From a virus (Duplodnaviria; Heunggongvirae; Uroviricota; Caudoviricetes): a stretch of 34,764 nucleotides of DNA. Of this stretch, positions 5,137 to 32,118 are shown in pieces. The first letter of the stretch is position 1. Each line of letters begins with the position of its first letter. The DNA is taken from IMG/VR virus record IMGVR_UViG_2671180568_000001; one strand, given 5' to 3'. The position numbers were made by a program, and so were the translations under genes. The notes beneath the pieces are model-generated. The model worked only from the letters and a program-made list of their open reading frames with translations, was not told the DNA's origin and did not search any database.

Positions 5137-5562
5137 TCGTGTTTCCGCTTCGCTGTAGCGCTTTTTCGCGCCAGTTGACGAGTTCGGTCAGGCTCATGGG
5201 ATACAGGTCTGATGGCGACCAGTGGAAAATTACCGCTATGTCAGCCATCAGGTCATCGACCGAGAGTTTTTGCGGGAAGGTTACGCCGCCTAACTCGGTG
5301 ACAAAAAACCGACCACCTTACCGGCAAACGACAGCAGGTCGGGCAGCTCCAGTGCGGCGGCTTCCTGCTCGGTCAGCGACGGCATGGTCATGCGCGGCAG
5401 CACTTTAATCAGCGCATCGACGTCAGAGTTTGCGACAGATGCCAGGCTGACACCGCGAAGGGTTCCGGCACACGGTTTTAACAGGGTGACGTCGGTAATA
5501 ACCTGCTCACCGCGCTTAATGGGTTTAATCAGAGTGACGATATTTTCGTTAGTTTTATCCAT
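5129..5562 (-). CDS. tail assembly chaperone E+E' made by programmed -1 frameshift at T_TTT_TTG (minus strand, plus coordinates 5302-5308)
   Basis: Heptamer is in zero-frame register GGT-TTT-TTG; the -1 frame hand-translated stays open to TAA at 5129-5131, overlapping the T start as in P2. Confidence 0.7.
5290..5562 (-). CDS. E: tail assembly chaperone E
   Basis: 90-aa ORF ending ...AGKVVGFLSPS upstream of T; carries the slippery heptamer near its 3' end. Confidence 0.85.
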   Translation of the reverse strand: MDKTNENIVTLIKPIKRGEQVITDVTLLKPCAGTLRGVSLASVANSDVDALIKVLPRMTMPSLTEQEAAALELPDLLSFAGKVVGFLSPS

Positions 5563-5624
5563 GATATTTCTCGTTAAATTCTGGTTTCAGGATGCCCGGC
5601 CAGCCATGCTGACCGGGGCATAAA

Positions 5625-6143
5625 TTACAGGCCGATATTTTGTCGGTGCGCCTCGAGCATGTCGGTGCCGTTCACTTTTTCGATGAGGTTCACGGTGTCG
5701 ATTTCCACCAGTTCCGAGCCATTCATCGTCAGCTTGAAATAGGTACACGCGAGAGCGATTTTCGACTCGGTGTCTTCGCCCTGTTTGGCTTCACCGAGGT
5801 CGATTTCTTTCTGACGGCCACGGAGAACAACCTCAACCGGCACGGTCTCGCCGGTGTCATCACGCTGGTAAGACCCGGCAAAACGTAGCGGTACGGAGGC
5901 CGCGCCGGTGGCAGCGTATAACGACCAGATAGCGTCATCGGGGAAGCCGCCGAGAGAGATTTCAGCCGACAGCGCATCGTCATCGAGGCCGAGGTCGACC
6001 GGTGCCGAACCATTCATCCCGCCGCCGCGATAGTTCTCGAGCTTGCGGGTTAATTTCGGCAGCGTGACGGACTGCACGACGCCGAGATAACTCACCCCAT
6101 CGATAAACAGGTTCATGAGTTTGAGCTTGCGCGGTAATGCCAT
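5625..6143 (-). CDS. FII: tail tube protein FII
   Basis: 172-aa ORF after FI, P2 gpFII-like. Confidence 0.9.
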   Translation of the reverse strand: MALPRKLKLMNLFIDGVSYLGVVQSVTLPKLTRKLENYRGGGMNGSAPVDLGLDDDALSAEISLGGFPDDAIWSLYAATGAASVPLRFAGSYQRDDTGETVPVEVVLRGRQKEIDLGEAKQGEDTESKIALACTYFKLTMNGSELVEIDTVNLIEKVNGTDMLEAHRQNIGL

Positions 6144-6155
6144 TTGTCAGGCTCC

Positions 6156-7343
6156 TTATTTGCTGTTGACGGACGAGATAAGATTCGCCAGATATTTATC
6201 AGTAATGCGCTGGCGTAAGGTCAGGTGTTCGAGTGGCGGCACCGGCGTATAGTCATAATCGATAAACAGTTTCCCGGCTTTCAGGGTTTCTTTACTGTTG
6301 GCCTCTTCGTCAAACCAGCACGTCGCATCGATGATGTAACCGCCGGTTTTCAGCTCGCGGAATTTCGCGTTGATGCCGTCGATAATGTCGCGAATCAACG
6401 TCGCGGTGATGGGCTTATCGTTCGCCCACATATGCCCCTCGGCTATTGTGTCGGCTATGACCTGTGCGGTGCGGGTGTAGTTCTCAAACTGAAACAGCGG
6501 GTCATCGGAGCAATTACGGTTACCCCAGAAGCGGAAACCATCGGCACGAATCAGCGTCGTAACACCGGCCTCATTCAGCAGGTCGGCATCAGTGCCAGAT
6601 TCCTGCAAATCCCAGAAGACCGACGCACTGATACCGGTGACGCCATTGATGCCGACGTTTGACAGGGTTTTATGCCAGCCTGTGTCATTGTCGATTTTTG
6701 CGCGCAGTCCCAACGCGATCGCTGTTGCATAACTGGTTGTGGTCGCGTTGGCCGTGGTATCCCACCCGAGGAAGTCAGGCCAGATAATCATGAGCTCACG
6801 GGCGCTGAAGTTTTCGCGGTAGGCGATAACGTCAGCAATGGTTTTACAGCCCCACGCGCTGACATAGGCGAAAGCGCGCAGCTTCTGAGCCACGGAGACA
6901 AGCGCGGTCGCCACCTCCTGAGTATCGAGCCCCGGCACACCGAGAATACGTGGCTTCACGCCGGTGACCGCTTTCGCCGTTAACAGCGCTTTCATCCCGG
7001 TATATTTGCCATTCTCATCCGTGGTGCCGATGATGTTAGAAATGGTTTGCGCCTGTGCCTCTTCGCCGTCGCCGGTACCCTCCGCGACACGCACAACAAC
7101 GACAACCGGTTTTGACTGGTTAGCGATGAGCTGTAAGGATTTTGCCAGGGTACCTTTAGTACCGGCTTTTGCGATGGCGCTTTGTGGGTTGGTAATCAGC
7201 ACCGGCTCATTGAGAGGGAAAGCCCCGGCGTCAGCATCACTGGCTGTGCAGACCATGCCAACGACCGCCGTTGATACCGTCGAGATTGTGCGGGTGCCGT
7301 CGTTAATTTCGACGACCTCGACACCGTGATGATAATCACTCAT
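6156..7343 (-). CDS. FI: contractile tail sheath protein FI
   Basis: 395-aa ORF starting MSDYHHGVEVVEINDGTRTIST, P2 gpFI-like. Confidence 0.92.
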   Translation of the reverse strand: MSDYHHGVEVVEINDGTRTISTVSTAVVGMVCTASDADAGAFPLNEPVLITNPQSAIAKAGTKGTLAKSLQLIANQSKPVVVVVRVAEGTGDGEEAQAQTISNIIGTTDENGKYTGMKALLTAKAVTGVKPRILGVPGLDTQEVATALVSVAQKLRAFAYVSAWGCKTIADVIAYRENFSARELMIIWPDFLGWDTTANATTTSYATAIALGLRAKIDNDTGWHKTLSNVGINGVTGISASVFWDLQESGTDADLLNEAGVTTLIRADGFRFWGNRNCSDDPLFQFENYTRTAQVIADTIAEGHMWANDKPITATLIRDIIDGINAKFRELKTGGYIIDATCWFDEEANSKETLKAGKLFIDYDYTPVPPLEHLTLRQRITDKYLANLISSVNSK

Positions 7344-7407
7344 CCGTTTAACTCCGTTAGTTGAGGTGAGTGATATTGTCTGGTTTACGCCTGTATGCGG
7401 CTATTTG

Positions 7408-7986
7408 TCAGGGTTCGCCGGTGGCTGACACAACGGGATTTGTCGCCGGAAATTTTTTATACAGCGTCGATATGCCCACATCAAAAATCAGTGCAACACG
7501 CTGTCGGGATTCTCCGGCCGCAATCAACCGGCCAGCCTGAGCCCATTCATCAGGCGTCAGCTTCGGCCTACGACCTCCGATCCTGCCTTGTGCCCGGGCT
7601 GCATCCAGCCCGGCGCGGGTTCGTTCGACGATTAACTCGCGTTCCATTTCTGCAAGAGCGCCCATGATGTGAAAGAAAAATCGCCCCATCGGGGTTGAGG
7701 TATCAATACTGTCGGTCAGGCTTCTGAAATTAACCCCTCGCTGGCGAAGCTCTTCAGTCATAGAGACAAGATGGCGCATGCTACGCCCGAGCCTGTCGAG
7801 CTTCCAGACAACGAGAGTATCACCGGCATTAAGTTGCCTGAGTGCGCGATTTAACCCTGGCCTGTTTGTCGATTTACCGCTGATTTTATCCTCGAAAATT
7901 AGCTCACATCCCGACCGTTCCAGCGCGTCACGCTGTAGCGCGGTATTTTGTTCATTTGTTGATACGCGCACATAGCCAACCTGCAT
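7408..7986 (-). CDS. serine recombinase, Hin/Gin/Cin/Pin-type DNA invertase
   Basis: N-terminus [13 protein letters not shown]... with catalytic-Ser context and a C-terminal HTH; GAGGG RBS before ATG at 7986 (ORF track uses an upstream TTG). Sits next to a hix-like site. Confidence 0.88.
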
Positions 7987-8040
7987 TTGTTTTCCCTCAT
8001 GCAAAAGCCCAAATGATGCCAGCTAGGGGGGAAAACTACA

Positions 8041-8066
8041 TTTTCTTAAACGTTGGTTTAGGAGAA
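8041..8066. other. hix/gix-like 26-bp crossover site (invertase-proximal): TTTTCTTAAACG-TT-GGTTTAGGAGAA
   Basis: Imperfect dyad of 12-bp half-sites around a central TT; the palindrome-arm identity begins exactly at the central dinucleotide (8053). Confidence 0.6.
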
Positions 8067-8405
8067 GCGGCTAAAAGGAATGTAGGGACAGGGGCAAATC
8101 AGATACCTGATATGGGTAGCTTCACGCTTTCTGTTTCAGGTACTGGATATCAAAAATTACCATCAGGTTTTATTCTTCAGTGGGGCTCAATCGGCGCACC
8201 AGGCATTGCACAGGATGTAGTAACCCATTTCCCGATTGCATTTCCAAACAGATGTCTGCGTGTTTTGGTCTCACAAGACTACACACCAGATAGCGGGGCT
8301 GTTGGTTATATTGCCTGTGCAGGTTTTAGTCCCGACCCGGTTAAATTTATATCCAGAGCCAGTACTCCTGGCCTCGGCGCTTCATTTTTAGCGTTAGGCT
8401 GTTAA
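8053..8405 (+). CDS. tail-fibre variable C-terminal cassette Hv1, promoterless mirror copy
   Basis: Encodes the same residues as the C-terminus of H (...[16 protein letters not shown]...LALGC); begins at the crossover site with no start codon of its own. Confidence 0.5.
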
Positions 8406-8426
8406 TTTAGCTATATGGAGTGAAAA

Positions 8427-8867
8427 ATGAATTACATATATTCCGTGACTACAAACTCTTTCTATCCGCTGGAGATGAAAGAGGATTACACTCAAGCTGA
8501 CTCATGGCCAGATGATGCTGTTGAAGTTGATGAGCAAGCGTATATTGAGTTTTCCGGATTACCGCCGAAAGGAAAAATCCGTATCGCTGGAGAAAATGGT
8601 TTTCCTGCATGGTCTGAAATTCCACCACCAACACATGAGGAACAGATTGCTGCAGCCGAACTGGAAAAGCAGCAACTGATTAATCAGGCCAACGATTATA
8701 TGAACAGTAAACAATGGCCTGGTAAAGCGGCTATTGGTCGCCTGAAAGGTGAGGAACTGGCGCAATATAATTTGTGGCTGGATTATCTGGACGCACTGGA
8801 ACTGGTCGATACCTCCAGTGCTCCAGATATTGAATGGCCTACGCCTCCGGCAGTTCAGGCCAGATGA
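8427..8867 (+). CDS. tail fibre assembly protein Tfa1, mirror copy
   Basis: 146-aa ORF identical in translation to 10936..11376. Confidence 0.55.
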   Translation: MNYIYSVTTNSFYPLEMKEDYTQADSWPDDAVEVDEQAYIEFSGLPPKGKIRIAGENGFPAWSEIPPPTHEEQIAAAELEKQQLINQANDYMNSKQWPGKAAIGRLKGEELAQYNLWLDYLDALELVDTSSAPDIEWPTPPAVQAR

Positions 8868-9441
8868 CATCCGGCGCGGTGCTGGTATCTGTTGCCGTCA
8901 CCGCGTCAATGTAATCCAGCACGGCGTTAAGTCGGGTTGTTTCTGCCTGCGTCAACTTCCGTCCGGCCTGTAATTTCAGCTGAATCAGACTAATGGAAGC
9001 CATTGCTGCATCAATCAGTGACTGGCGCTGTGCTTCTGCCGCGTCTACTGCGGCACTATGCTGTGCCTCAGTATCCGTCACCCATTTCTCACCATCCCAT
9101 TTATCATATGGCGTTAACGGGGCGATAGTGGTTGTATTTTCAGGGTAATCACCCGGAGCTGTGATTTCTTTCGATTCTCCTGTTTCGGTGCTATAGATGA
9201 TTTCACCGCGATGGTCTGGCACATATTCCCATGAGTTAAAATCTGCAGAACGGCAGATTGCATAACCAGCTTTATGTGTAACTGGTGCATCTAAACAAGA
9301 ACATGCCGGGATACCGACGCCAACCGCAAGATATTCAGTTGATGTGGAAATATATTCCCGCGTTTCACCATCATAATTATAAATGGTAATGTCTCCCGCT
9401 TTTATGGCAATGAGTTCGTTATTTAATACGGCTTTATTCAT
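8839..9441 (-). CDS. tail fibre assembly protein Tfa2, mirror copy
   Basis: 200-aa ORF identical in translation to 10362..10964. Confidence 0.55.
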   Translation of the reverse strand: MNKAVLNNELIAIKAGDITIYNYDGETREYISTSTEYLAVGVGIPACSCLDAPVTHKAGYAICRSADFNSWEYVPDHRGEIIYSTETGESKEITAPGDYPENTTTIAPLTPYDKWDGEKWVTDTEAQHSAAVDAAEAQRQSLIDAAMASISLIQLKLQAGRKLTQAETTRLNAVLDYIDAVTATDTSTAPDVIWPELPEA

Positions 9442-9891
9442 CAGGCAGCCCTCACGATATAATTAAAGGCAATGTTACGAGGTCGGTTTTCGTTTGCAGT
9501 TGGAACAACTCTGGAAGCATCGAATGTTACTCGCTTTGCATAACCACCTTTAATTGAATCAGATGAAGCATCTCCGATGACGCTGGTTGTAAAAACGCCA
9601 GAATCAGAAGGGTAGGTATTAAACCTGACATCCACTAATGCACCAATTATATTTCGAATGGCATCTCCCTGTGACGAAAGCAAGCTACGGTTAGTATCTA
9701 TTCCTCTTCCGTCATCCCAGCCACGAATGAACTCACCACGTAAATCAGGCAATTTATTTGTCGGGTAAGCCTTTGCCAGTTCCGGGTATTCTTCAGCAGA
9801 AAAAGCCGCACCGTTGCATTTCAGCCAGCCTGTTGGCGGAGTGGCGGAAGGCCACGGAACAGGCACACCAACGGGTAATGCCGAACCTTCT
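9441..9891 (-). CDS. alternative tail-fibre C-terminal cassette Hv2, mirror copy, running into the N gap
   Basis: Same protein as 9902..10362; ends ...RNIAFNYIVRAA. Confidence 0.45.
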
Positions 9892-9901
9892 NNNNNNNNN
9901 N
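9892..9901. other. run of 10 N (assembly gap) beside the palindrome axis
   Basis: Literal N characters; the mirror positions 9902-9911 read ttggtttggg. Confidence 0.99.
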
Positions 9902-10362
9902 TTGGTTTGGGAGAAGGTTCGGCATTACCCGTTGGTGTGCCTGTTCCGTGGCCTTCCGCCACTCCGCCAACAGGCTGGCTGAAATGCAACGGTGCGGCTT
10001 TTTCTGCTGAAGAATACCCGGAACTGGCAAAGGCTTACCCGACAAATAAATTGCCTGATTTACGTGGTGAGTTCATTCGTGGCTGGGATGACGGAAGAGG
10101 AATAGATACTAACCGTAGCTTGCTTTCGTCACAGGGAGATGCCATTCGAAATATAATTGGTGCATTAGTGGATGTCAGGTTTAATACCTACCCTTCTGAT
10201 TCTGGCGTTTTTACAACCAGCGTCATCGGAGATGCTTCATCTGATTCAATTAAAGGTGGTTATGCAAAGCGAGTAACATTCGATGCTTCCAGAGTTGTTC
10301 CAACTGCAAACGAAAACCGACCTCGTAACATTGCCTTTAATTATATCGTGAGGGCTGCCTGA
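9902..10362 (+). CDS. alternative tail-fibre C-terminal cassette Hv2 (receptor-binding tip, promoterless)
   Basis: Begins with the crossover-site peptide GLGE; the C-terminal NIAFNYIVRAA matches the conserved end of P2/Mu-type fibre tips as recalled. Confidence 0.55.
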
Positions 10363-10964
10363 TGAATAAAGCCGTATTAAATAACGAACTCATTGCCATA
10401 AAAGCGGGAGACATTACCATTTATAATTATGATGGTGAAACGCGGGAATATATTTCCACATCAACTGAATATCTTGCGGTTGGCGTCGGTATCCCGGCAT
10501 GTTCTTGTTTAGATGCACCAGTTACACATAAAGCTGGTTATGCAATCTGCCGTTCTGCAGATTTTAACTCATGGGAATATGTGCCAGACCATCGCGGTGA
10601 AATCATCTATAGCACCGAAACAGGAGAATCGAAAGAAATCACAGCTCCGGGTGATTACCCTGAAAATACAACCACTATCGCCCCGTTAACGCCATATGAT
10701 AAATGGGATGGTGAGAAATGGGTGACGGATACTGAGGCACAGCATAGTGCCGCAGTAGACGCGGCAGAAGCACAGCGCCAGTCACTGATTGATGCAGCAA
10801 TGGCTTCCATTAGTCTGATTCAGCTGAAATTACAGGCCGGACGGAAGTTGACGCAGGCAGAAACAACCCGACTTAACGCCGTGCTGGATTACATTGACGC
10901 GGTGACGGCAACAGATACCAGCACCGCGCCGGATGTCATCTGGCCTGAACTGCCGGAGGCGTAG
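10362..10964 (+). CDS. tail fibre assembly protein Tfa2, cognate chaperone of Hv2
   Basis: 200-aa ORF overlapping the Hv2 stop (ATGA); C-terminal ...APDVIWPELPEA typical of Tfa/gpG-like chaperones. Confidence 0.7.
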   Translation: MNKAVLNNELIAIKAGDITIYNYDGETREYISTSTEYLAVGVGIPACSCLDAPVTHKAGYAICRSADFNSWEYVPDHRGEIIYSTETGESKEITAPGDYPENTTTIAPLTPYDKWDGEKWVTDTEAQHSAAVDAAEAQRQSLIDAAMASISLIQLKLQAGRKLTQAETTRLNAVLDYIDAVTATDTSTAPDVIWPELPEA

Positions 10965-11376
10965 GCCATTCAATATCTGGAGCACTGGAGGTATCGACCA
11001 GTTCCAGTGCGTCCAGATAATCCAGCCACAAATTATATTGCGCCAGTTCCTCACCTTTCAGGCGACCAATAGCCGCTTTACCAGGCCATTGTTTACTGTT
11101 CATATAATCGTTGGCCTGATTAATCAGTTGCTGCTTTTCCAGTTCGGCTGCAGCAATCTGTTCCTCATGTGTTGGTGGTGGAATTTCAGACCATGCAGGA
11201 AAACCATTTTCTCCAGCGATACGGATTTTTCCTTTCGGCGGTAATCCGGAAAACTCAATATACGCTTGCTCATCAACTTCAACAGCATCATCTGGCCATG
11301 AGTCAGCTTGAGTGTAATCCTCTTTCATCTCCAGCGGATAGAAAGAGTTTGTAGTCACGGAATATATGTAATTCAT
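10936..11376 (-). CDS. tail fibre assembly protein Tfa1 (gpG-like), cognate chaperone of the expressed fibre
   Basis: 146-aa ORF directly downstream of H; C-terminal ...APDIEWPTPPAVQAR. Confidence 0.8.
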   Translation of the reverse strand: MNYIYSVTTNSFYPLEMKEDYTQADSWPDDAVEVDEQAYIEFSGLPPKGKIRIAGENGFPAWSEIPPPTHEEQIAAAELEKQQLINQANDYMNSKQWPGKAAIGRLKGEELAQYNLWLDYLDALELVDTSSAPDIEWPTPPAVQAR

Positions 11377-11397
11377 TTTTCACTCCATATAGCTAAA

Positions 11398-12357
11398 TTA
11401 ACAGCCTAACGCTAAAAATGAAGCGCCGAGGCCAGGAGTACTGGCTCTGGATATAAATTTAACCGGGTCGGGACTAAAACCTGCACAGGCAATATAACCA
11501 ACAGCCCCGCTATCTGGTGTGTAGTCTTGTGAGACCAAAACACGCAGACATCTGTTTGGAAATGCAATCGGGAAATGGGTTACTACATCCTGTGCAATGC
11601 CTGGTGCGCCGATTGAGCCCCACTGAAGAATAAAACCTGATGGTAATTTTTGATATCCAGTACCTGAAACAGAAAGCGTGAAGCTACCCATATCAGGTAT
11701 CTGATTTGCCCCTGTCCCTACATTCCTTTTAGCCGCTTCTCCTAAACCAAGGTTTTTGAGAACCTCAGCAACCAATCCGGCGTCGGCCATTTCTTTTAGT
11801 GCGTTCGCAATCAGCGGGTATTGCTTATGCGGGTTAGCCTTTGCCTCATGATCTTTCATGAGTTTGTCGGCGTAGCTCTTCACCTCGATGACTGCATCGT
11901 CGACATATTTACGGGTTGCCAGCACGACTGACGGGTCGATTTTTAAGGTGATCGCCGAAGTGCTCGAGACAACGAGAATCATGCGAATGGTCTGCGTTCG
12001 GCCGCTCCCCTCAGCCAGTAACGGTTTATAGGTTTCCGGGCAGTTGGCGACAGCAATCAGGATACCTTCATCATCGTAAAGACCGATTTCGCGGATAAAG
12101 AAACCGCCCTCGTTTTCCGGGATGATCTGCTCGGCAATAATCTGACCGGTGTCGTTAGCATCTACTGCCAGTGAATTTAGCAGCTCGCGGCGACGCTCGT
12201 TAATGAGCTTTGTCTGAGCCGGGTCAGGTGTCGGCAGTGTGCCGTTTCCGTCCCCGACGGCCATTTGTGTAATATTCAGTTTAGTACCGAGTGCGGTCGC
12301 GTTTGCCAGTCGCGCCGCGCCCTGATGGGTCAGAATGGCAAAATATTTAGTCGTCAT
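11398..12357 (-). CDS. H: tail fibre protein H (constant N-terminal part fused to cassette Hv1)
   Basis: 319-aa ORF with P2 gpH-like N-terminus ([22 protein letters not shown]...MAVGDGNG); its C-terminus is duplicated at 8053..8405. Confidence 0.85.
11737..11762. other. hix/gix-like 26-bp crossover site inside H (minus strand TTCTCAAAAACC-TT-GGTTTAGGAGAA)
   Basis: Dyad half-sites; encodes [10 protein letters not shown] at the constant/variable junction of H; the palindrome arm ends at its central dinucleotide (11750). Confidence 0.6.
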
Positions 12358-12965
12358 GCGCTTACTCGCAGGTTATCAATCAGATGAATGGCCGAAGCCG
12401 GACAAAACTCACCACCGACGACAATCTCCCCGGAGGCATAGGGATATACGGTTAACAGGTCGCCGTCGTAGCAGCTTGCGCCCACATAAGCGCGCCCGGT
12501 GGTGCTCAGGCTGATAGCGAGCCCGGTCAGGTGTCGGCTTGCCGGTTTTGCCCCTTCAATAAGGCGCTCGAGCTCGAGATACATCTCATCGGTGATGCCG
12601 GTCTCGAGTACGCCAACCACAAGCCGGAAAGTTCCCGGCTCTTCGTTGAGCTCCCACCACTCTTTAACCTCAATCAGATAGCCCAGCGGCTCCACCACGC
12701 GCCGTAATGCGGCGATGGTGCCTTTGTGGGCATGAACATAAAATGCGGAGGCGATAACGCTGCGTTTTGTGGCCTCCGGCCATCTCTCATCCCACCGGTC
12801 AACCGAAAATGCCCACGCCAGATACGGCAGCAGCCGCACCGGGCAAGTGCGCCAGTTCCACAACGTGCGAAGCGGTACCGGCACACGCTCAATATCTGCG
12901 GCCGCGCGGGCGGCGGCGACCTCGAGCAGCGATGAGCCAACAGGCAACAGTCGCTTATTACTCAT
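12354..12965 (-). CDS. I: baseplate assembly protein I
   Basis: Start chosen at [26 protein letters not shown] (ATG at 12965, overlapping the J stop); the ORF-track 244-aa form is an N-terminal extension. Confidence 0.85.
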
Positions 12966-13866
12966 CGGCCCCCCCGTCAGCGATGTGGTATTCGGTGCAA
13001 CAGGATGCCTGGTATTTACTGAGCACAATGTCAGCCAGTGGCGCGGCGAGTTCGACACGCTGCACACCTTCGACATGCAGGGCGGCATAGATGGCCGACT
13101 GACGAATGTCCCGGCCCAGTCGCTGTTGTGCGCTGATGTATGCCTTCAGTTTTTCCTCTGCGGCCTGACGGATTGGCTCGGCCTCCGGCCCCGGATAAAA
13201 ATACAGAGTTGCATCAATCTGATACGGCACGATTTCAGCACTCTGCACCGTCACCCTGTCGCCAACCGGGCGCACCTCTTCAGCATTTAGTGCTTTTTCA
13301 ACGATGGTCAGAAGCTCATCGGATGCGGTGCCGTCATCCTCGCGTGACAGCACGGTGATGGTCACACAGGCCGGTGACGGGCTGACAACCGAGATATCAG
13401 CGACCCGACCGTCGGCGCTGCGACCGTGGTATTCATATGCGCCGACCGGACCAGCCACGCTGAGCCCTTCATAAGCCTGTTGTGCGCGTAACCGTAAATC
13501 GGTATCAGATTCCATGACGGCGGGTGTCGGCGGGATAGTGCTGTCATCGGCGGGCGTCACAATCTGTCGCGCGGTGTTGTTGTTTCCGGCCATCACATCA
13601 AGGTCGTTATTACTCGCATAAGCCAGTGTGCAGCCTTTCGCCGCATCGTTTACACGCTGACGCCAGATAACCTCCCGATAGGCGTTTTCCTCCAGATACT
13701 TCACCAGTGGCTCAGACTCAAGGGCGAGAGTACGCGCAACAGCGTCCTGTTGTTCTTCAGGGTAAAGCGAGACCAGCGTCGCTTTGCGTTCCGCGAGAAT
13801 AGTCTCAAAATCCAGCGTTTCCACGACGTCAGGCGCGGGGAGCTGGCTCAGGTCGATGTTTGCCAT
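12958..13866 (-). CDS. J: baseplate assembly protein J
   Basis: 302-aa ORF MANIDLSQLPAPDVVETLDFETILAERKA..., P2 gpJ-like. Confidence 0.9.
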   Translation of the reverse strand: MANIDLSQLPAPDVVETLDFETILAERKATLVSLYPEEQQDAVARTLALESEPLVKYLEENAYREVIWRQRVNDAAKGCTLAYASNNDLDVMAGNNNTARQIVTPADDSTIPPTPAVMESDTDLRLRAQQAYEGLSVAGPVGAYEYHGRSADGRVADISVVSPSPACVTITVLSREDDGTASDELLTIVEKALNAEEVRPVGDRVTVQSAEIVPYQIDATLYFYPGPEAEPIRQAAEEKLKAYISAQQRLGRDIRQSAIYAALHVEGVQRVELAAPLADIVLSKYQASCCTEYHIADGGADE

Positions 13867-13870
13867 AAAT

Positions 13871-14218
13871 TCAACTCACAGGAATAGTCAGTGACAGGGT
13901 TTTGCCGGTGTCCCGGGTCTCGCCGGTCAGCTCAACAATCATCTGACCGTTAAACTGACGTTCTACCGTCAGCGAGCTGATGCTGATGCGCGGCTCCCAC
14001 TTCAGCAGCGCCATATAACAGGCGCACATAATTTGCAGTCTCAGCGCGTCGGTCTGCGGCATATCAATCAGGGAGAACAACAGCGAGCCATAATCGCGAC
14101 GCATCACGCGAGAGCCGACCGGCGTTCGCAAAATATCGCCACAGCTCTGACGGATGTGATCGGCGTCAGTGATGGCGCGCCCGGTCTCCCTGTTCATACC
14201 GATATAACGGGTCGTCAT
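13871..14218 (-). CDS. W: baseplate protein W (gp25-like)
   Basis: 115-aa ORF between V and J. Confidence 0.9.
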   Translation of the reverse strand: MTTRYIGMNRETGRAITDADHIRQSCGDILRTPVGSRVMRRDYGSLLFSLIDMPQTDALRLQIMCACYMALLKWEPRISISSLTVERQFNGQMIVELTGETRDTGKTLSLTIPVS

Positions 14219-14856
14219 TTCGTGCCCTCCGTCCAGGCTCCACCTCTTTGCACACCGCCGTGACCGTGGCTGTCGACCTGAACGCCGTTGGATTTAAACG
14301 TACCGTCGGTGTGTTCGATGTTTCCGCGCATGGTGCCGCCTTGTTGTACCTCAAGCGTCGCCGTCGTCAGTTTGTTGGTGCAGACCACTTCCGGTGTATC
14401 GAGGGTGATGCGGGTCTCGGCTTTCACCGTCACCAGCGGTACCGTCGCGGTGATGGAATCCGACGCCGTAACGTCTGCGGTTTTAATGCCGCTCACGGTC
14501 AGCGCGCCGGTCTCCGGCTCGTACTCGATAACAGCCCCATCAGGAAAGGTGATGTGAAAAGCATCAGCCGACGCCGACGGCGCGGGGTGGTCATCCGAAA
14601 AAATGCCGGGCAGCACAAAAGCGGTGTCGAGTTCACCACCCACGGCCAGCAGTAAAACCTGCTCGCCCACAGACGGAGCCCACCAGACACGTGAACGACC
14701 GGCGCGTGTGGTCAGCCACTGAAGCCAGTCGGTAACAATGCCGCCAGTCTGGACGCGACAGCGCCCGTCATCGAGGTCAACTTCGACGACGACGCCGGTA
14801 CGTATCAGGTTGCGAAGGAGGCGTAAAGCGTCCTGAAGAGTTGCGCGAGTATTCAT
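14215..14856 (-). CDS. V: baseplate spike/assembly protein V
   Basis: Start chosen at MNTRATLQDALRLLRNL (ATG at 14856); the upstream extension in the ORF track is rejected. Confidence 0.85.
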   Translation of the reverse strand: MNTRATLQDALRLLRNLIRTGVVVEVDLDDGRCRVQTGGIVTDWLQWLTTRAGRSRVWWAPSVGEQVLLLAVGGELDTAFVLPGIFSDDHPAPSASADAFHITFPDGAVIEYEPETGALTVSGIKTADVTASDSITATVPLVTVKAETRITLDTPEVVCTNKLTTATLEVQQGGTMRGNIEHTDGTFKSNGVQVDSHGHGGVQRGGAWTEGTK

Positions 14857-14932
14857 ACAAGGAAGGATGCCGCCCGGTGCTCTGGACGGCAATTAATGCG
14901 GGTTTTACCAGATATGGCACAACATACAAAAA

Positions 14933-16276
14933 CTAGCTTGGGGTAACTGTAACCTGACGAGAAAAAACAACAGGCTCCTTCAATTGCTCACATATAATTT
15001 TAAAATTAATAACTCCAGAGCCAATCGTTAAGGGAATGATGACTATTTCCTCATACTCAACAGTTAAGCTCTGTAACACTTTTTTCGCACGCAACGTGAT
15101 TTTATGGTCCTCTTTCATGACCCACTCATCTTGGTTAACTGTTCCTAAATCAGCCATCCGTTTAATTATTGCTGGCACTTCGAAATGAGGTTTAGCCATT
15201 ACCATCGATGTATCATCAAAAATACCCATCCTAAAATTTTCGAGTGACATTATAGCACTGAGTCTTTTTTTATGCTTACTTATTGGGGACTCAGGGATTT
15301 TTAATTTCGGCTCTTTTATAAATAAGTCTTCATTAGAACCTTTAAGCACTATTAGGAATTCAGGAAAATCAATCTCAACATAAACATTTGACGCAAAAGT
15401 CCTCCCATTATTTCTTAAAACGGGCTTCACTGTAATTGCATTGTTTTTGTAATTACAGTGCAATCTCATTTTTTTATTATATAAATCCACATCTTTATCA
15501 GTAGGCAGTGAAGAGTTATATGATTCAATCTCATCAATGGTGATAGTGTCCTTCAACTCAAGAGGTACCGCTTCCTTGCATAGTTGTGGAAGGTAATCCT
15601 GATAAGTCGACTCCACATCCACCGTCAAAGCTAAGTCATTATCAATCATGCTCAGCTCTAATTGAGGTGCATCGCTATGTAATTGGCTTTCATATTCGCG
15701 GACTTTTTCCCTTAATTTTCTATTTTCATTAGATAGCTCAGCCAACTCGGCGGTAATCTCTTTAGATGCGACCTGGTCACCGCGCACCCATCCTATTCGT
15801 GGATTTCGTCGCATTACTTTTGGTAAGGCGATAGCAACCTTCGTCGCTAACTCATCAATTGTCTCCCAAAAATCACACATTTTGTTAGCTTTAGCTTTTT
15901 CAATAAAAGCATTTAGTTGCTTTTCTTTTTGAGGGTCACTTTCTCGTTCATGTGGTTTTGTTAAAACGTCCCTCCCTCTAATAAAAGCCAACACCGGTAT
16001 ATTTAATGATTTAGCATAGTTATATTCCATTTCAGTATAGCTAATACCATCTTTAGAAACGGACCCATACTTATGCCCAATGATAATCACATAATAATCA
16101 CTAGCATCAATAGTCTCCTTTATTATATCCCACTGCTCAGAGTCATCAGCGCTAAACATCTCCATGCCAACTGGAAAGTGGTATAAACTAAGGACCGTTT
16201 CTATGATTTTTTTGCGAGCATCAATTAAATCGACGTATGTAGAGCTCACAAATACTTGATATTTTTTATTTTCCAT
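14933..16276 (-). CDS. cargo protein with DUF4062-like N-terminal domain and uncharacterised C-terminal region; candidate single-gene defence factor
   Basis: AT-rich 447-aa ORF between S and V; N-terminal motifs YQVFVSSTYVDL..ARKK, HFPVGMEMF, YYVIIIGHKYGS as recalled for DUF4062; AGGA RBS before ATG at 16276. Confidence 0.75.
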   Translation of the reverse strand: MENKKYQVFVSSTYVDLIDARKKIIETVLSLYHFPVGMEMFSADDSEQWDIIKETIDASDYYVIIIGHKYGSVSKDGISYTEMEYNYAKSLNIPVLAFIRGRDVLTKPHERESDPQKEKQLNAFIEKAKANKMCDFWETIDELATKVAIALPKVMRRNPRIGWVRGDQVASKEITAELAELSNENRKLREKVREYESQLHSDAPQLELSMIDNDLALTVDVESTYQDYLPQLCKEAVPLELKDTITIDEIESYNSSLPTDKDVDLYNKKMRLHCNYKNNAITVKPVLRNNGRTFASNVYVEIDFPEFLIVLKGSNEDLFIKEPKLKIPESPISKHKKRLSAIMSLENFRMGIFDDTSMVMAKPHFEVPAIIKRMADLGTVNQDEWVMKEDHKITLRAKKVLQSLTVEYEEIVIIPLTIGSGVINFKIICEQLKEPVVFSRQVTVTPS

Positions 16277-16313
16277 AACATCCTCACTTGTATAGAAAAT
16301 AAAATACATAAAA

Positions 16314-16781
16314 TCAATCAATAGATCTAGCCGCCTCAGCTAAAGAAACCATAATTATGTCATGAATCATATTTTTTGATTCATGATCAAACCCGATAAG
16401 CATTCGGGCGTCATACTGTACCGGCGCACTGTTTCGCCCAGGCTTATCTTTGAGACCGTACTGATGCACATTCGCCATCCGTTGTACCTTGCCGGTAAAT
16501 TCCACGACCGCCGAGTCATTCCCCGCTGTGGCTTTCATAAAGCGACTGGTGCGGAGCTTAGCGAACATTTCCCGCTTAACCCGGCCTGTTTTGGCTTTTA
16601 CCGGCTGGCGTTTTCGGGCGGCGTAAGGTGTCCCGTCCGGGGCTTTCTGCATTTTAATCCGGCGCTGTTGACGGGCTCGCAGGGTCTTAGCGATATCTGC
16701 GGCCATTCTGCGACGGGCGGCAGGAGACAGCGCTGCTATCAGCCCCGTGAGCGTATCGTCAAAGGGTTTAAAGTCATTCAT
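16314..16781 (-). CDS. S: tail completion protein S
   Basis: 155-aa ORF downstream of R, P2 gpS-like. Confidence 0.85.
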   Translation of the reverse strand: MNDFKPFDDTLTGLIAALSPAARRRMAADIAKTLRARQQRRIKMQKAPDGTPYAARKRQPVKAKTGRVKREMFAKLRTSRFMKATAGNDSAVVEFTGKVQRMANVHQYGLKDKPGRNSAPVQYDARMLIGFDHESKNMIHDIIMVSLAEAARSID

Positions 16782-25145: not shown

Positions 25146-25832
25146 TTATTGCTTATCTTGTGGTGGTGGAACCTCTTTTTCTAAATTATCTACATACTCT
25201 CTAATATTGAATGCTTTGTTTTTCCTTATTTCGGTAGTGTTAACCTTACTAACACCATCACGAATGTTTTTATTTATGGTGTCTATTAATTTTTGTCTTT
25301 CTTGTTCTGTTTTTATTATTTCACTTAAGAATGACTTTGCGTTTCTTGAAATGTCCGTCTGTCTATTAATGAATAGTATCGCATACACTGAAAAAACCAA
25401 GCAAGTAGTCGTTAGTGCGGAATTAAAAAATACCCCATAATAAACATTAACTTTTGTTATTGACGCTGATAACGTTAGTGATATCAAAAAAAACAAAATC
25501 AGGGTAAAAATATATGCAATGGTTACTTTGTTTTTAGTGGTGTCAAGAATGTATGAAGTTCTTTGATCATCAAAGTAATCCTTTATCCTTGATGGAGTGT
25601 TTGCGGGGAGTTCTAACTCCTTTATTTTATCATCAGCATCAATTAGTCGCTTAAACATGAGGCTAATGATTACGGCGCTAAAGACAGAGATCCCCTTTGA
25701 AATTATAGGATCGAAATCAATTAAAAATGAGTATTTTGAATAAACAAAAACAATAACAAAACCACATATAAGCCCAATTACAATTGAGCTTGCTATGTTT
25801 TTTGCATATGTTTGTAACGTATTGTTTATCAT
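25146..25832 (-). CDS. cargo membrane protein (four predicted TM helices plus charged C-terminal tail); candidate effector of a two-gene module
   Basis: AT-rich 228-aa ORF with four hydrophobic ~20-aa segments; start ATG overlaps the upstream gene stop (ATGA). Confidence 0.7.
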   Translation of the reverse strand: MINNTLQTYAKNIASSIVIGLICGFVIVFVYSKYSFLIDFDPIISKGISVFSAVIISLMFKRLIDADDKIKELELPANTPSRIKDYFDDQRTSYILDTTKNKVTIAYIFTLILFFLISLTLSASITKVNVYYGVFFNSALTTTCLVFSVYAILFINRQTDISRNAKSFLSEIIKTEQERQKLIDTINKNIRDGVSKVNTTEIRKNKAFNIREYVDNLEKEVPPPQDKQ

Positions 25833-26812
25833 GGGTTAATTACTCCGGTGTCTAGTAAGCGCAATAACCATGAAATCATTTCTTCAGCAACGTTGTCAGC
25901 AATTAGCATTCCATTGCTGTATTCAATATTAACTGAATCCTTTAGTTGAATCTCATCATTCCTGAGTATTCCTGCACCTTTTAACTCAATTGTTAAGCTT
26001 TCATCTCTATTATCAACCAAGCCTTGTGTAATTTTACGCAACATGTCTTGCTCAGACTCGCTTGCTTTATATTTATACCCAATGGAAATATCAATTGATA
26101 GAGATTCCCTGTCAGGTGAACCATCATTTAAAATGGCATTTTTCTTCATTTCATTAATTCGATGTTCACCTACGAGCGTTTTTAATAGCTCACTAGCTGT
26201 ATCATCAATATTATTTCCATAGTAGGTTAAAGGCAGCTTTAAGCTAACATTTTTTACTATGTTACGTTTTAAAAAATCCGTATTTAGAGACAGGTTGTTT
26301 GCCTGTAAAACGATGAAGTTATCATCAGTAATAGATAGGTTGTCTTGTAGTATGAAATTTATATAATTTTCAATATCTTTTATTCTAATAGATCTGCTTT
26401 GCAGAATTATGAAGTGGTTCTTAATCACACCAATGTATGCAATGCTTTCTAAATACTCTCTAGCATTCCCACTTGATAAATTTAATGTCTCGTATGTTAA
26501 AGCTGTTTTAGCATAATCGCTAACAGAGAAAACAGGAATGCTACTACCCGGTTCAATATAGACAATTTCCGCAAAAAACATTCCATGAATTTCTTTGCTA
26601 TTTGAAAGAACCATGTGGGCGTGAGCAGCGACATTACCATTATTATCTGGAACATCAGGGAAGAATAATCTATCAGCAACATTTGGAACCTTGATTTTCA
26701 CAAGGTTTGCCAACCTATCTTGCAGGTTTGATGTTAAAAGAGCATCCTTTTTAGGAAGCATTATTGCATGGCGATAATGCAGCATTTTACTCTTATAATC
26801 TTGCGTTGCCAT
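25829..26812 (-). CDS. cargo soluble protein, uncharacterised; candidate sensor partner of the membrane protein
   Basis: AT-rich 327-aa ORF with no TM segments; AGAGGGA RBS before ATG at 26812; no motif recognised by eye. Confidence 0.7.
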   Translation of the reverse strand: MATQDYKSKMLHYRHAIMLPKKDALLTSNLQDRLANLVKIKVPNVADRLFFPDVPDNNGNVAAHAHMVLSNSKEIHGMFFAEIVYIEPGSSIPVFSVSDYAKTALTYETLNLSSGNAREYLESIAYIGVIKNHFIILQSRSIRIKDIENYINFILQDNLSITDDNFIVLQANNLSLNTDFLKRNIVKNVSLKLPLTYYGNNIDDTASELLKTLVGEHRINEMKKNAILNDGSPDRESLSIDISIGYKYKASESEQDMLRKITQGLVDNRDESLTIELKGAGILRNDEIQLKDSVNIEYSNGMLIADNVAEEMISWLLRLLDTGVINP

Positions 26813-26883
26813 AGAATCCCTCTTGCTATGAATATGTTATACACGGAGCGAAGCAATTATGTATTGTATTGCTCTGGCGCGCA

Positions 26884-26902
26884 ATGCTATCCCCGCCACG
26901 CC
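26884..26902 (-). other. cos cohesive-end sequence (minus strand GGCGTGGCGGGGATAGCAT)
   Basis: Matches 18 of 19 nt of the phage 186 cohesive end as I recall it (GGCGTGGCGGGGAAAGCAT); lies in the A-to-Q non-coding region where P2-like phages carry cos. Confidence 0.6.
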
Positions 26903-27183
26903 TGCCCGCTTTATGGGGCGGTTTTAATGCAGTTGCATGACCACTCTGGATACGCGCCAGCTGTGGCGGCACACGGCTAGAACGTGCAACCCATGTCGCA
27001 TGCAAAATCATGCGCCTGATGCATGCACAGCTAAAAAACGGGAAATTCGTGGAAAAATGGCATAAAAAACGACTTTGAAAGTGCCGGCCATGGTCAGATT
27101 TTCAAGGGCAGGCTAACGCCTCGCGCGGCTCGTTGTTCAAACCCGCTGACGCCAAAATCTAGTTTTTGCATCAGCGCGTTTAC

Positions 27184-27366
27184 CTATTCAGCCTTATAGA
27201 AAATTTCGTCTTTTTCTTCGTCGCTTTCGCTGTTAGCTAGGCCGGCAATCAGAGTTAGTGCCAGCTTCAAATCTGCCGGTTTGCAGTTGGCAATAAGAGA
27301 TATCTCGGCGATAAATTGCACACAAGCCCACTTTTGCTGCGTTCGGCTGAAATGTTTCCCAACCAT
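27184..27366 (-). CDS. small hypothetical protein directly downstream of a LexA box; occupies the position of the 186 SOS-inducible tum gene
   Basis: 60-aa ORF with GGGAGGG RBS; LexA box 20 nt upstream. Function not recognisable from sequence. Confidence 0.4.
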   Translation of the reverse strand: MVGKHFSRTQQKWACVQFIAEISLIANCKPADLKLALTLIAGLANSESDEEKDEIFYKAE

Positions 27367-27386
27367 GAAATCCCTCCCAATAGGAT

Positions 27387-27406
27387 TACTGTGTATTTAT
27401 ACAGTA
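27387..27406 (-). promoter_or_regulatory. LexA (SOS) box TACTGTGTATTTATACAGTA
   Basis: Perfect CTGT-N8-ACAG dyad with flanking TA/TA, immediately upstream of the 27366 start codon. Confidence 0.7.
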
Positions 27407-27555
27407 TAACGTATTGGCAAAAGATGGGAAGAGAAAAAGTGAATCGGGTAGGTGTTGTATGTACATGATATGGATGTAAATTAATCACCTGTGAGTTTTG
27501 ATGTTTCTGCCAGCACCGCAACACGATTAAGGATTTCCCTAGGCTTTGCCTGAAG

Positions 27556-29703
27556 CTATGGCGCTGCGGAGAAAATTTCACCTTTGGACGTTCCACGCAA
27601 CCATTTACCGTTAATACAACTTTTGCCACCTGCTATCAGGTGCAGGGCTTCTCCCCGGCTGATGGTAATGCCGGTTGTCAGACGGATCTCGTCGATAGTT
27701 TTTTCTATCGGAGCACTTTGCTCATCTGTTCCGTGGATAAATTTCGGCCTCTTAGGTGGCTTTGGTTTCCTGATTCGGTTCGTCAGCTCTCGCCTTTCAC
27801 GTCGACTCAGGGGTTTTGATAAATCGAGTTCCGGTGGATCGCTTTCGCTTCCCGTACAGTTATTGACAGAACTCCAAGGGACGGCGAAGCCGTCCTTAAC
27901 GTCAACGGCCAAATCAACGGCACGCTTCGGAACAATTTTCCATTGCGTGAGCCGGGTTAAAATCGGAGTGCCAACACCAACGGTGGAGTCGTACACACCA
28001 CGAATGCAGACAGTTTCCTCACCATACTGGTTAAACTCGGTGCGCGGTTCATAAAGCGTACGCACCTGCAAATCATCGCGACGGACAAACGGACCGCCCT
28101 GCGCATTAACATAGCCAGCCCAATCACCGGCATCGGCGGCATCATGGACAGCCGCAAACTCAACACTTAGACCGTGCGCGGTCTCGGTATCTGCAAGGCG
28201 ACGCAATTCACGATAAACAGTCACTGGTGCACCACCGATAAACTGAAACTGACGAATATGCCAGCGCGCCGCCCATGCTGAAACGGCGGGGGCTGTCTCT
28301 TTCAACAGTTCACCGTTTTCGTCATCGGTTTCGTCATCAAGAGCGTAACCGTCGATATTTTTCGAGATGTATTTCGCGACGTAGCCGGTTGCGCTGCCTT
28401 TCTCCGGATCAATGGCTTCTGCGTGGAAACGTGCTTTTTTGGCTTTATCGCTTTTGAGTTCGTGAAAATCTTCTTGCCATGCGTAGTCCCGAATAATGCC
28501 ACGAACGGTATCGACGTCCTCCGGGAGCATAAACATCAGCATATGCCAGTGAGGGCACCCGTCATGGTGAGGCTCTGCAACGCGGATCCCGAAAATACGA
28601 ATGTCTTCACGGTGGAGTTTTGCGCGAATGCGTGCCCACAGGCCAGTGAGATAACATTGCGTATCGGATGGATTGGATCCATTCCATTTGGTGTTACGGT
28701 AGCCTGCCTTTGTCGTGGCGTGATATTTAGACGGTGCGGTCAGGGTGTAAAACTCACCAACATAACCGAGCTCATTGCAGATATTTTCAAACCCACGAAT
28801 GCGGGTCATAAGCTCACAGCGTCGAATCGCAGAGTTAGCGACTGAACCATCGTATTTTTCAATCAGGCTGATACGGTTGCCGTCTTCGTCTTCAAGCTCC
28901 AGACCTTTGAGAAATTCGCGCGTCCGGCGCTTCTGTTCACGCCAGTCTGTCACGCAGTTTTTACTCGCGTAGACATGTTTTTTCTTACTGACATTTCCGA
29001 TTGCGATTTGCAGGTGTTCGCGCCACGCAGCCGCAATGCGACGCAGACGGCCACGCCACCATTTTTCCGAAAACATACGGGCAATTGCTGGAGCGACTTT
29101 ATCCTGATCCCAATATTTATCCCGCGACCGTTCCCACTCTGGTGGCATTATCCTGAATTGCTGAGTGATGAAACCAGCATGCATATACCAGGCATTTAAT
29201 GTCTCCAGTTCACACATGTCAGAATCGTCAATGTTGACTAACTCTGCACGGATAAAATCGGCGATATCAGCAGCCAGCAGGTCGATGTCGGCGCGTGCCA
29301 TATCCGGGAGTCGGTTGTATCTGGCGACTATGTTGACCATGCGAGACGCCAGATATTGCATAAGCTGAGTATCGAAATGACAACCGAAAACAGCGGCTGA
29401 TACGTTGCTGTTAATACCGGTACACTCGTATTTTTTTGCGACCAGTTCAAAACGCGGCAATGCCTTTTTGCAGAAGCTTATTAAAAAAGCATTGGCTCGT
29501 TGACTGCCCTGATTTTGCTCCAGCACCGCAGCAGTGCGATAAACGTCAAAACGTACACACTCGGGCTGGAGGGAAAGCACCTTTCTAGCATGCAGCAAAG
29601 CCGCGAGCATACGGTCGCGGCGATACTGTTGGTCGTAGGTAAGATATGGACTGGCTATTGCCGACCGTGGAGCATTCCACGGAAACGCGAATTGAACAGC
29701 CAA
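27556..29703 (-). CDS. A: replication initiation endonuclease A (rolling-circle initiator)
   Basis: 715-aa ORF in the P2 gpA position with gpA-like sequence character. Confidence 0.9.
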   Translation of the reverse strand: MAVQFAFPWNAPRSAIASPYLTYDQQYRRDRMLAALLHARKVLSLQPECVRFDVYRTAAVLEQNQGSQRANAFLISFCKKALPRFELVAKKYECTGINSNVSAAVFGCHFDTQLMQYLASRMVNIVARYNRLPDMARADIDLLAADIADFIRAELVNIDDSDMCELETLNAWYMHAGFITQQFRIMPPEWERSRDKYWDQDKVAPAIARMFSEKWWRGRLRRIAAAWREHLQIAIGNVSKKKHVYASKNCVTDWREQKRRTREFLKGLELEDEDGNRISLIEKYDGSVANSAIRRCELMTRIRGFENICNELGYVGEFYTLTAPSKYHATTKAGYRNTKWNGSNPSDTQCYLTGLWARIRAKLHREDIRIFGIRVAEPHHDGCPHWHMLMFMLPEDVDTVRGIIRDYAWQEDFHELKSDKAKKARFHAEAIDPEKGSATGYVAKYISKNIDGYALDDETDDENGELLKETAPAVSAWAARWHIRQFQFIGGAPVTVYRELRRLADTETAHGLSVEFAAVHDAADAGDWAGYVNAQGGPFVRRDDLQVRTLYEPRTEFNQYGEETVCIRGVYDSTVGVGTPILTRLTQWKIVPKRAVDLAVDVKDGFAVPWSSVNNCTGSESDPPELDLSKPLSRRERRELTNRIRKPKPPKRPKFIHGTDEQSAPIEKTIDEIRLTTGITISRGEALHLIAGGKSCINGKWLRGTSKGEIFSAAP

Positions 29704-31539: not shown

Positions 31540-32118
31540 ATGAAATTGGATGAGTTAGAGGGTGGAAAAGCAGTGCTGCAGCGCATCCTTGATGCGTATG
31601 GCTTCACCATGCAAAAACAACTCGGTGACTTGCATGAGCTGTCATCGGGAACAATCAGCACTTGGGTTCGGCGTAATTTTTTCCCCGGGGATGTTGTTGT
31701 TGCATGCGCTTTGGACACTGGGGTGTCTTTACGTTGGTTGGCAACAGGGAAGGGGAACAAGTTTGATGCAGACCATACTAATGGCGAAATGAAAACATTA
31801 GACCGATTGGATATTGTTGCAGGTAAGCTGCAGGAAAACGGTCATTGGATTGTTGATGCTAACCTCTTTTCTACTGAGGCGACGCACCCCAATTACATAG
31901 TAAAAGGCCAGCAGTCCTGGATAGTTGATTTTGATATGACTGATATAGCAAATGGGCGATGGATGCTCAGTATCGACGGGGATCATGATGTCTATGACGT
32001 TGCAAGGATCCCGGGGAACAGAATAAAAGTCAGCAACGCTGATGCCGATTTTCAATGCTCAGTTTCTGAGGTTAAGTGTATTGGCATGGTGCTGGTAAGC
32101 CTGACGAAATCTAGCTAA
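31540..32118 (+). CDS. cI: 186-type CI immunity repressor (N-terminal HTH, large C-terminal domain)
   Basis: Start at ATG 31540 gives 192 aa, the size of 186 CI; immediately upstream of int in the same orientation. Confidence 0.75.
   Translation: MKLDELEGGKAVLQRILDAYGFTMQKQLGDLHELSSGTISTWVRRNFFPGDVVVACALDTGVSLRWLATGKGNKFDADHTNGEMKTLDRLDIVAGKLQENGHWIVDANLFSTEATHPNYIVKGQQSWIVDFDMTDIANGRWMLSIDGDHDVYDVARIPGNRIKVSNADADFQCSVSEVKCIGMVLVSLTKSS

Follow-up and report, generated by a model that had tools for sequence, protein, structure and literature searches.

In phage 186, Tum is "the anti-CI factor" and is made upon derepression of the promoter p95 (PMC7708051); tum goes unmentioned in the Eganvirus paper. 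In the annotation of this region (U32222), p95 consists of the -35 element TTCACA, an 18-nt spacer, and the -10 element TACTGT, which coincides with the first six bases of the LexA site, and the SOS operon also contains orf97 and the terminators t95a and t95b. The 186 Tum protein (AAC34187) is 146 aa long, carries a DinI-like part fused as its C-terminal half, and has nested in-frame products. Tum was described as resembling an antirepressor fused to DinI, with a coding region split by a stop codon in Fels-2 and PSP3, and a personal communication cited in the same paper assigns the antirepressor activity of PSP3 to the upstream gene (PMC3121763). In PSP3 (AY135486), the 60-aa protein TumA (AAN08399; PHROG 1993) is encoded between gene A and cos, with an RBS and a LexA box about 20 nt upstream, and is annotated as "similar to 5' end 186 tum; UV induction of prophage." The DinI-like gene tumB begins 3 nt past the tumA stop codon of PSP3, and two further ORFs precede cos. 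The DuoHS Tum of E. coli HS (ECHS_RS04495) is a stand-alone 62-aa protein encoded behind LexA boxes, between gene A and a separate DinI-like gene; its in-frame deletion abolishes mitomycin C induction, as does lexA(Ind-) (PMC12055606). The same logic, in which a small LexA-repressed protein binds a repressor that is not cleaved by RecA, is found in GfoA/GftA of Gifsy and AntC of N15, but these proteins are unrelated to TumA in sequence and belong to lambdoid and N15 phage types; in the Gifsy prophages the operon begins with a dinI homologue. DinI itself (PF06183) is a small SOS-regulated protein.

The window, i.e., the whole stretch of 34,764 nt analyzed here, is a prophage of E. coli that belongs to the 186-like group (Eganvirus, P2 family). 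Its genes are arranged in the order int, cI, an ORF in the position of apl, cII, fil, early genes, A, LexA box, tumA, cos, cargo genes, and portal and terminase genes, and the CI/Apl/CII/Int region is of the 186 type. Twelve complete E. coli genomes, PCN033 and FORC 064 among them, carry the 1-kb region around tumA with 100% identity, and a thirteenth carries it with 99.9% identity. The original prediction, made from the sequence of the window, described a perfect CTGT-N8-ACAG dyad ending 20 nt from the ATG of a 60-aa ORF with a GGGAGGG RBS, in a tum-like position beside cos. All these features are present (Table 1), and the ORF lies between replication gene A and cos, as does the SOS operon of 186. 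The locus is very probably the SOS induction module of this Eganvirus prophage in a short, tumA-only form, in which TumA would inactivate the CI repressor.

Table 1. Coordinates of the SOS locus and associated features in the window
Feature	Coordinates	Strand	Evidence
LexA (SOS) box, TACTGTGTATTTATACAGTA on the plus strand, TACTGTATAAATACACAGTA on the gene strand	27387..27406		18/20 positions agree with the consensus TACTGTATATATATACAGTA; same place as the annotated LexA site of 186 p95
Predicted p95-type sigma-70 promoter	27401..27430	-	Promoter scan; alignment with annotated 186 p95
Shine-Dalgarno sequence GGGAGGG	27372..27378	-	5 nt ahead of the ATG; GGGAGGG also in aligned relatives
tumA, 60-aa TumA-family gene (Gly42 allele)	27184..27366	-	PHROG 1993; identity to PSP3 TumA; dN/dS
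Stable hairpin followed by invariant GTTGAACAACGAG, no U tract	27129..27181	-	Directly past the tumA stop codon
Degenerate homologue of 186 terminator t95b	27064..27089	-	Alignment with the 186 right end; folding
cos cohesive end GGCGTGGCGGGGATAGCAT	26885..26903	-	18/19 positions agree with annotated 186 cos
Replication gene A, amber-bearing	27481..29703	-	Pfam Phage_GPA, E 2e-128; directly upstream of the SOS promoter
cI immunity repressor (192 aa), presumed target of TumA	31540..32118	+	PGAP "phage repressor protein CI"

The LexA box is the sole site of such consensus quality in the window: the runner-up agreed with the consensus at 14 of 20 positions, and a score of 18 was reached by none of the 200 block-shuffled windows. 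The CTGT-N8-ACAG dyad occurs twice, compared with 0.26 copies expected, and the other copy, at 28293 within gene A, agrees with the full LexA consensus at 12 of 20 positions. The spacer between the box and the tumA start codon (27366-27364, minus strand) occupies positions 27367-27386. The predicted promoter comprises the -35 element TTCCCA (27430-27425), an 18-nt spacer, and the -10 element TACTGT (27406-27401) located inside the LexA box; the sequence TATACT, with a spacer of 16 nt, is an alternative -10 element. Covering the -10 element and start site with a LexA box is the classical layout of LexA repression, and LexA would be expected to bind the predicted box. The proposal of a LexA-controlled promoter of the 186 type was borne out at the level of alignment with the annotated LexA-repressed p95, and the promoter block TTCCCATCTTTTGCCAATACGT is kept in relatives. 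A CTGT-N8-ACAG box matching the consensus at 16-19 of 20 positions was found upstream of tumA in all 33 loci examined, which represent more than 15 genera. The distance from the box to the start codon was 17-23 nt in 31 of these 33 loci, the two outliers being loci with a truncated start call. Another block, nearly invariant across genera, lies between the gene A stop codon and the SOS -35 element (27456-27477; ACATCCATATCATGTACATACA on the minus strand), and the intergenic sequence flanking it varies.

The 60-aa ORF matched PHROG 1993 with an E value of 3.2e-28 over residues 4-60 and showed 83% identity to the TumA of Salmonella phage PSP3. Among 5.8 billion proteins searched, 112 homologous clusters were found, nearly all of 60-62 aa and several of them named TumA in UniRef, spanning Escherichia, Salmonella, Klebsiella, Citrobacter, Enterobacter, Cronobacter, Pluralibacter, Kosakonia, Pantoea, and other genera. 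More remote members, 58-87 aa in length, came out of an exhaustive profile search, in which no TumA-DinI fusion protein appeared; the single match of 137 aa has an unrelated tail. The core ACVQFIAE(V/I)SLIANCKPxDLKLALxLIADLA is almost invariant in the family, and the ORF of the window keeps all 19 invariant columns but has Gly in place of the nearly invariant Asp42. A gap-free alignment was possible for seventeen 60-codon tumA genes, which gave a median dN/dS of 0.08 overall and 0.03 over codons 14-45. Together with the family lengths of 60-62 aa, these values indicate that the ORF is a real, constrained gene that is full-length for the TumA family. The initial suggestion that it might be a truncated Tum or a different SOS factor was therefore abandoned, since the ORF is a complete TumA-family member of about 60 aa. 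A longer product in the same frame was ruled out, the ATG being the first start codon past the upstream in-frame stop. Overlapping ORFs (27267-27629 on the minus strand; 27281-27409 and 27316-27468 on the plus strand) were unsupported as products, and the substitution pattern fits the 60-aa frame.

Searches of Pfam (E<=1), NCBIfam, and PADLOC assigned the ORF to no family, and an exact-sequence look-up of the protein gave no match in the collection searched. In all 81 complete E. coli genomes that carry tumA, the product is labelled "hypothetical protein" in RefSeq, and the present analysis proposes a function for it. The layout A, tumA, cos also occurs in PSP3, RCIP0057, E. coli EC6868, Pluralibacter, Pantoea, and further loci. 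Judged by sequence comparison, the ORF is a new allele of the known TumA kind in a common layout. The AF2 model built from the family alignment contained helices at residues 8-25 and 30-46 (pLDDT 70), and the predicted structure of TumA is a hairpin of two helices with an acidic tail.

The relationship of TumA to 186 Tum was detectable by profiles and not by pairwise comparison. BLASTP of the ORF against the 146-aa 186 Tum gave no alignment, while hhalign aligned residues 16-48 of the TumA profile to residues 14-46 of the Tum N-terminal profile (33 columns, 82% probability, E 1e-5). A tblastn search with 186 Tum produced a collinear alignment in relatives, running through tumA and its stop codon into tumB, which is in frame. 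In the AF2 model of a 63-aa stand-alone Tum of the 186 type, helices were found at residues 2-22 and 28-47 (pLDDT 80); the two modelled hairpins are alike, and both carry a conserved Cys in the turn. With a profile match of moderate probability, we consider with moderate confidence that TumA is remotely homologous to the N-terminal half of 186 Tum, the antirepressor part. The comparison with Tum and DinI suggested at the outset thus gave a mixed result, positive for the N-terminal half of Tum and negative for DinI (PF06183), to which the ORF showed no similarity in Pfam at E<=1.

The window shares with 186 a homologous promoter and LexA box, the genomic position, and the host-SOS logic. Unlike the 186 protein, TumA has no DinI domain, which places the module outside the full-length Tum architecture. 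Unlike PSP3, the window has no tumB or other DinI-like sequence between the tumA stop codon and the portal gene, and the two further ORFs are likewise missing. The tumA stop codon instead abuts the sequence found after tumB in Klebsiella phage RCIP0057 and after orf97 in 186. In E. coli, the twelve next-best prophages among the matches listed carry tumB. Among the 29 species-representative tumA loci, tumB was found within 3 kb in eight and was absent in 21; the tumA-only form is thus the commoner one in Enterobacterales, which argues that the 60-residue hairpin alone is a working antirepressor and the DinI-like half is optional. The module would work like the p95-tum module of 186, and its product is a member of the PSP3 TumA family and not a DinI protein.

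DuoHS Tum resembles TumA in being a stand-alone protein behind LexA boxes, but it is followed by a DinI-like gene that the window lacks. Membership of DuoHS Tum in the TumA family was rejected: the match of its profile to TumA was not significant (E 0.13), although the register was the same, and that to the N-terminal part of 186 Tum was weak (E 8e-4). Because DuoHS Tum belongs to a different sequence family, the deletion made in E. coli HS bears on how such a module works and not on family membership.

Downstream of tumA, the hairpin at the stop codon has a folding energy of -19.4 kcal/mol (z -4.75), and compensatory changes were found at 12 of its 18 pairs in 15 aligned copies. This hairpin-GTTGAACAACGAG element has no family in Rfam, is unannotated in 186, and forms the end of the SOS operon of many 186-like elements. 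PSP3 and one Escherichia locus each have two copies, which flank an extra ORF; copies were found in loci L001 (~2925-2975 and ~3330-3380), L002 (~3345-3397), and L011 (two copies). It may be a candidate operon-end or cassette-boundary element. In the homologue of t95b, the 3' arm GCCGG is replaced by GTCG, so that the canonical stem is lost; the T6 tract is retained, and the folding energy is -6.8 vs -10.7 kcal/mol. A weak 5-bp hairpin with a T run is located at 27025-27009. The 330 nt past the tumA stop codon, a stretch reaching slightly past cos, contained no hairpin of <=-6 kcal/mol combined with a T tract. The alignment with the right end of the 186 record extends to position 26904, and cos is 280 bp from the tumA ORF. 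About 10 nt left of the cos end, the usual cos-portal spacer of ~170 bp is replaced by a cargo insertion. The cargo genes (25146-26812, minus strand) encode a 327-aa protein and a 228-aa predicted membrane protein with a 4-nt overlap. Pfam, NCBIfam, and PADLOC contained no family for the pair, and the 327-aa protein matched PHROG 3482. An Acinetobacter phage has a 23%-identical homologue with the label "DefenseFinder protein."

The presumed target of TumA, the CI repressor of the window, is 48% identical to CI of PSP3 and 28% identical to CI of 186. It consists of 192 aa with one HTH domain, whereas the 286-aa CI of PSP3 has two, the second of which is ~83% identical to that of the window. Two tandem N-terminal HTH domains are present in the TumA-associated CI proteins of 286-295 aa encoded in loci L036 (1198-2058, the PSP3 cI), L039 (3996-4883), and L041 (2712-3599). 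In the phage database, the ten records encoding TumA were exactly the ten best matches to the CI of the window. Strict co-variation of TumA with CI type was nevertheless rejected, since a Pantoea prophage pairs TumA with a 186-like CI.

The following course of induction can be proposed. In an undamaged lysogen, LexA bound to the box over the -10 element and the start site would keep tumA silent. Upon DNA damage, activated RecA would promote self-cleavage of LexA, and the p95-type promoter would fire, allowing the 60-residue TumA to be made. TumA would then bind the prophage CI and prevent its binding to the operators, so that the lytic promoter would be freed, the early lytic operon derepressed, and lytic growth started. 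The steps involving TumA and CI are based on the role of 186 Tum as the anti-CI factor, the statement on PSP3, and the tum deletion in E. coli HS; by analogy with these systems, contact between TumA and CI appears plausible, and the Gly42 allele may be active. Such a scheme represents the ordinary SOS switch of the 186 phage group and leaves the understanding of the mechanism unchanged. It identifies the likely route of DNA-damage sensing for a prophage carried by at least 13 complete E. coli genomes, and it can be used in annotating P2/186-like prophages and tailocin-like derivatives and predicting their inducibility.

That the open frame and the LexA-like palindrome stand side by side by chance has a negligible probability. 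The shortness of the ORF and the lack of Pfam, NCBIfam, and PADLOC hits would fit a chance frame, but the PHROG match (E 3e-28), the 112 clusters, the dN/dS values of 0.03-0.08, which settled the coding status by conservation, and the box at 33 of 33 loci refute it. It is also very unlikely that TumA acts on a target other than CI, such as RecA or LexA, in the manner of DinI-like proteins or GIL01 gp7, with induction being indirect. Co-transcription of tumA with a DinI-like gene in many relatives could be read in this way; however, TumA has no similarity to DinI, its counterpart in 186 Tum is the half without DinI resemblance, Tum having been shown to inhibit DNA binding by CI, and the personal communication on PSP3 gives the antirepressor activity to the upstream gene. 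Somewhat unlikely, but of more concern for the SOS induction module, is that a cassette right in form has decayed, with Gly42 crippling TumA, an amber codon in gene A blocking replication, or both, leaving a non-inducible or non-productive prophage with the LexA-controlled gene as a relic. Residue 42, located within predicted helix 2, is Gly (GGC) in the window, as opposed to Asp (GAC or GAT) in each of the 35 other aligned family members, PSP3 TumA included; the Tum proteins of 186 and E. coli HS have Glu at the corresponding position. Asp or Glu occupies this column in 22 of 26 distant relatives, and the TumA of the window may be weakened by Gly at a nearly invariant acidic position; against this, the remaining four distant members also lack an acidic residue there. 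In gene A, TAG at 27556-27558 replaces TCG (Ser) of PSP3, RCIP0057, and Enterobacter relatives and removes the last 25 residues, so that induction might not yield phage. PGAP flags gene A as a pseudogene ("internal stop"), but it is the only one in the prophage, all other genes being intact, and the amber codon falls in the C-terminal tail, the least conserved part of A. Moreover, the 13 complete genomes sharing the same 1-kb region came from cucumber, dog, pig, blackbird, and humans, a distribution suggestive of recent mobility or retention. Either Gly42 or the amber codon could lower inducibility or phage yield.

It is quite unlikely that a main output of the SOS promoter is read-through over cos into the co-oriented cargo pair, switching on accessory, possibly defence, genes. 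Such read-through is possible because the cargo begins on the same strand 371 nt past the tumA stop codon with no strong canonical terminator between them, the stem of the t95b homologue being lost. There is also a precedent in the SOS operon of 186, where plasmid-expressed orf97 blocks 186 infection according to the 186 annotation. On the other hand, tumA is followed by the very stable conserved hairpin, the T6 tract and weak hairpins remain, and a separate promoter for the cargo may well lie in the 26813-26884 spacer. If read-through does take place, it would make an accessory, possibly defence, module DNA-damage-inducible. A combined reading also appears doubtful: the SOS promoter may drive the cargo across cos past the degraded t95b, the hairpin-GTTGAACAACGAG element may serve as a cassette boundary for cargo exchange at a hotspot, and Gly42 could adjust the tuning or specificity of TumA to the divergent CI.

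Several other loci and regions deserve mention. In the Pluralibacter metagenome contig L039, positions 3996-16183 contain the genes for CI, A, and TumA followed by those for tail protein X, holin, lysozyme, baseplate, sheath, and tube, and no portal, terminase, or capsid genes were present between tumA and the tail genes; this contig resembles a tailocin-like P2 derivative that appears to retain the LexA/TumA switch. The window itself contains a perfect (100%) inverted repeat of 1851 nt, with arms at 8041-9891 and 9912-11762 separated by 20 nt, which covers the genes for the tail fibre and tail-fibre assembly and adjoins a recombinase-like ORF (7408-8004). In the PCN033 prophage, which is otherwise identical, this 1851-nt segment is present in a single copy, and the repeat could be an invertible-segment variant or an assembly artefact. 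Between baseplate gene V and a virion-morphogenesis gene, a gene for a DUF4062-domain protein (PGAP; 14933-16321, minus strand) looks like a second insertion of an accessory gene in the late region.
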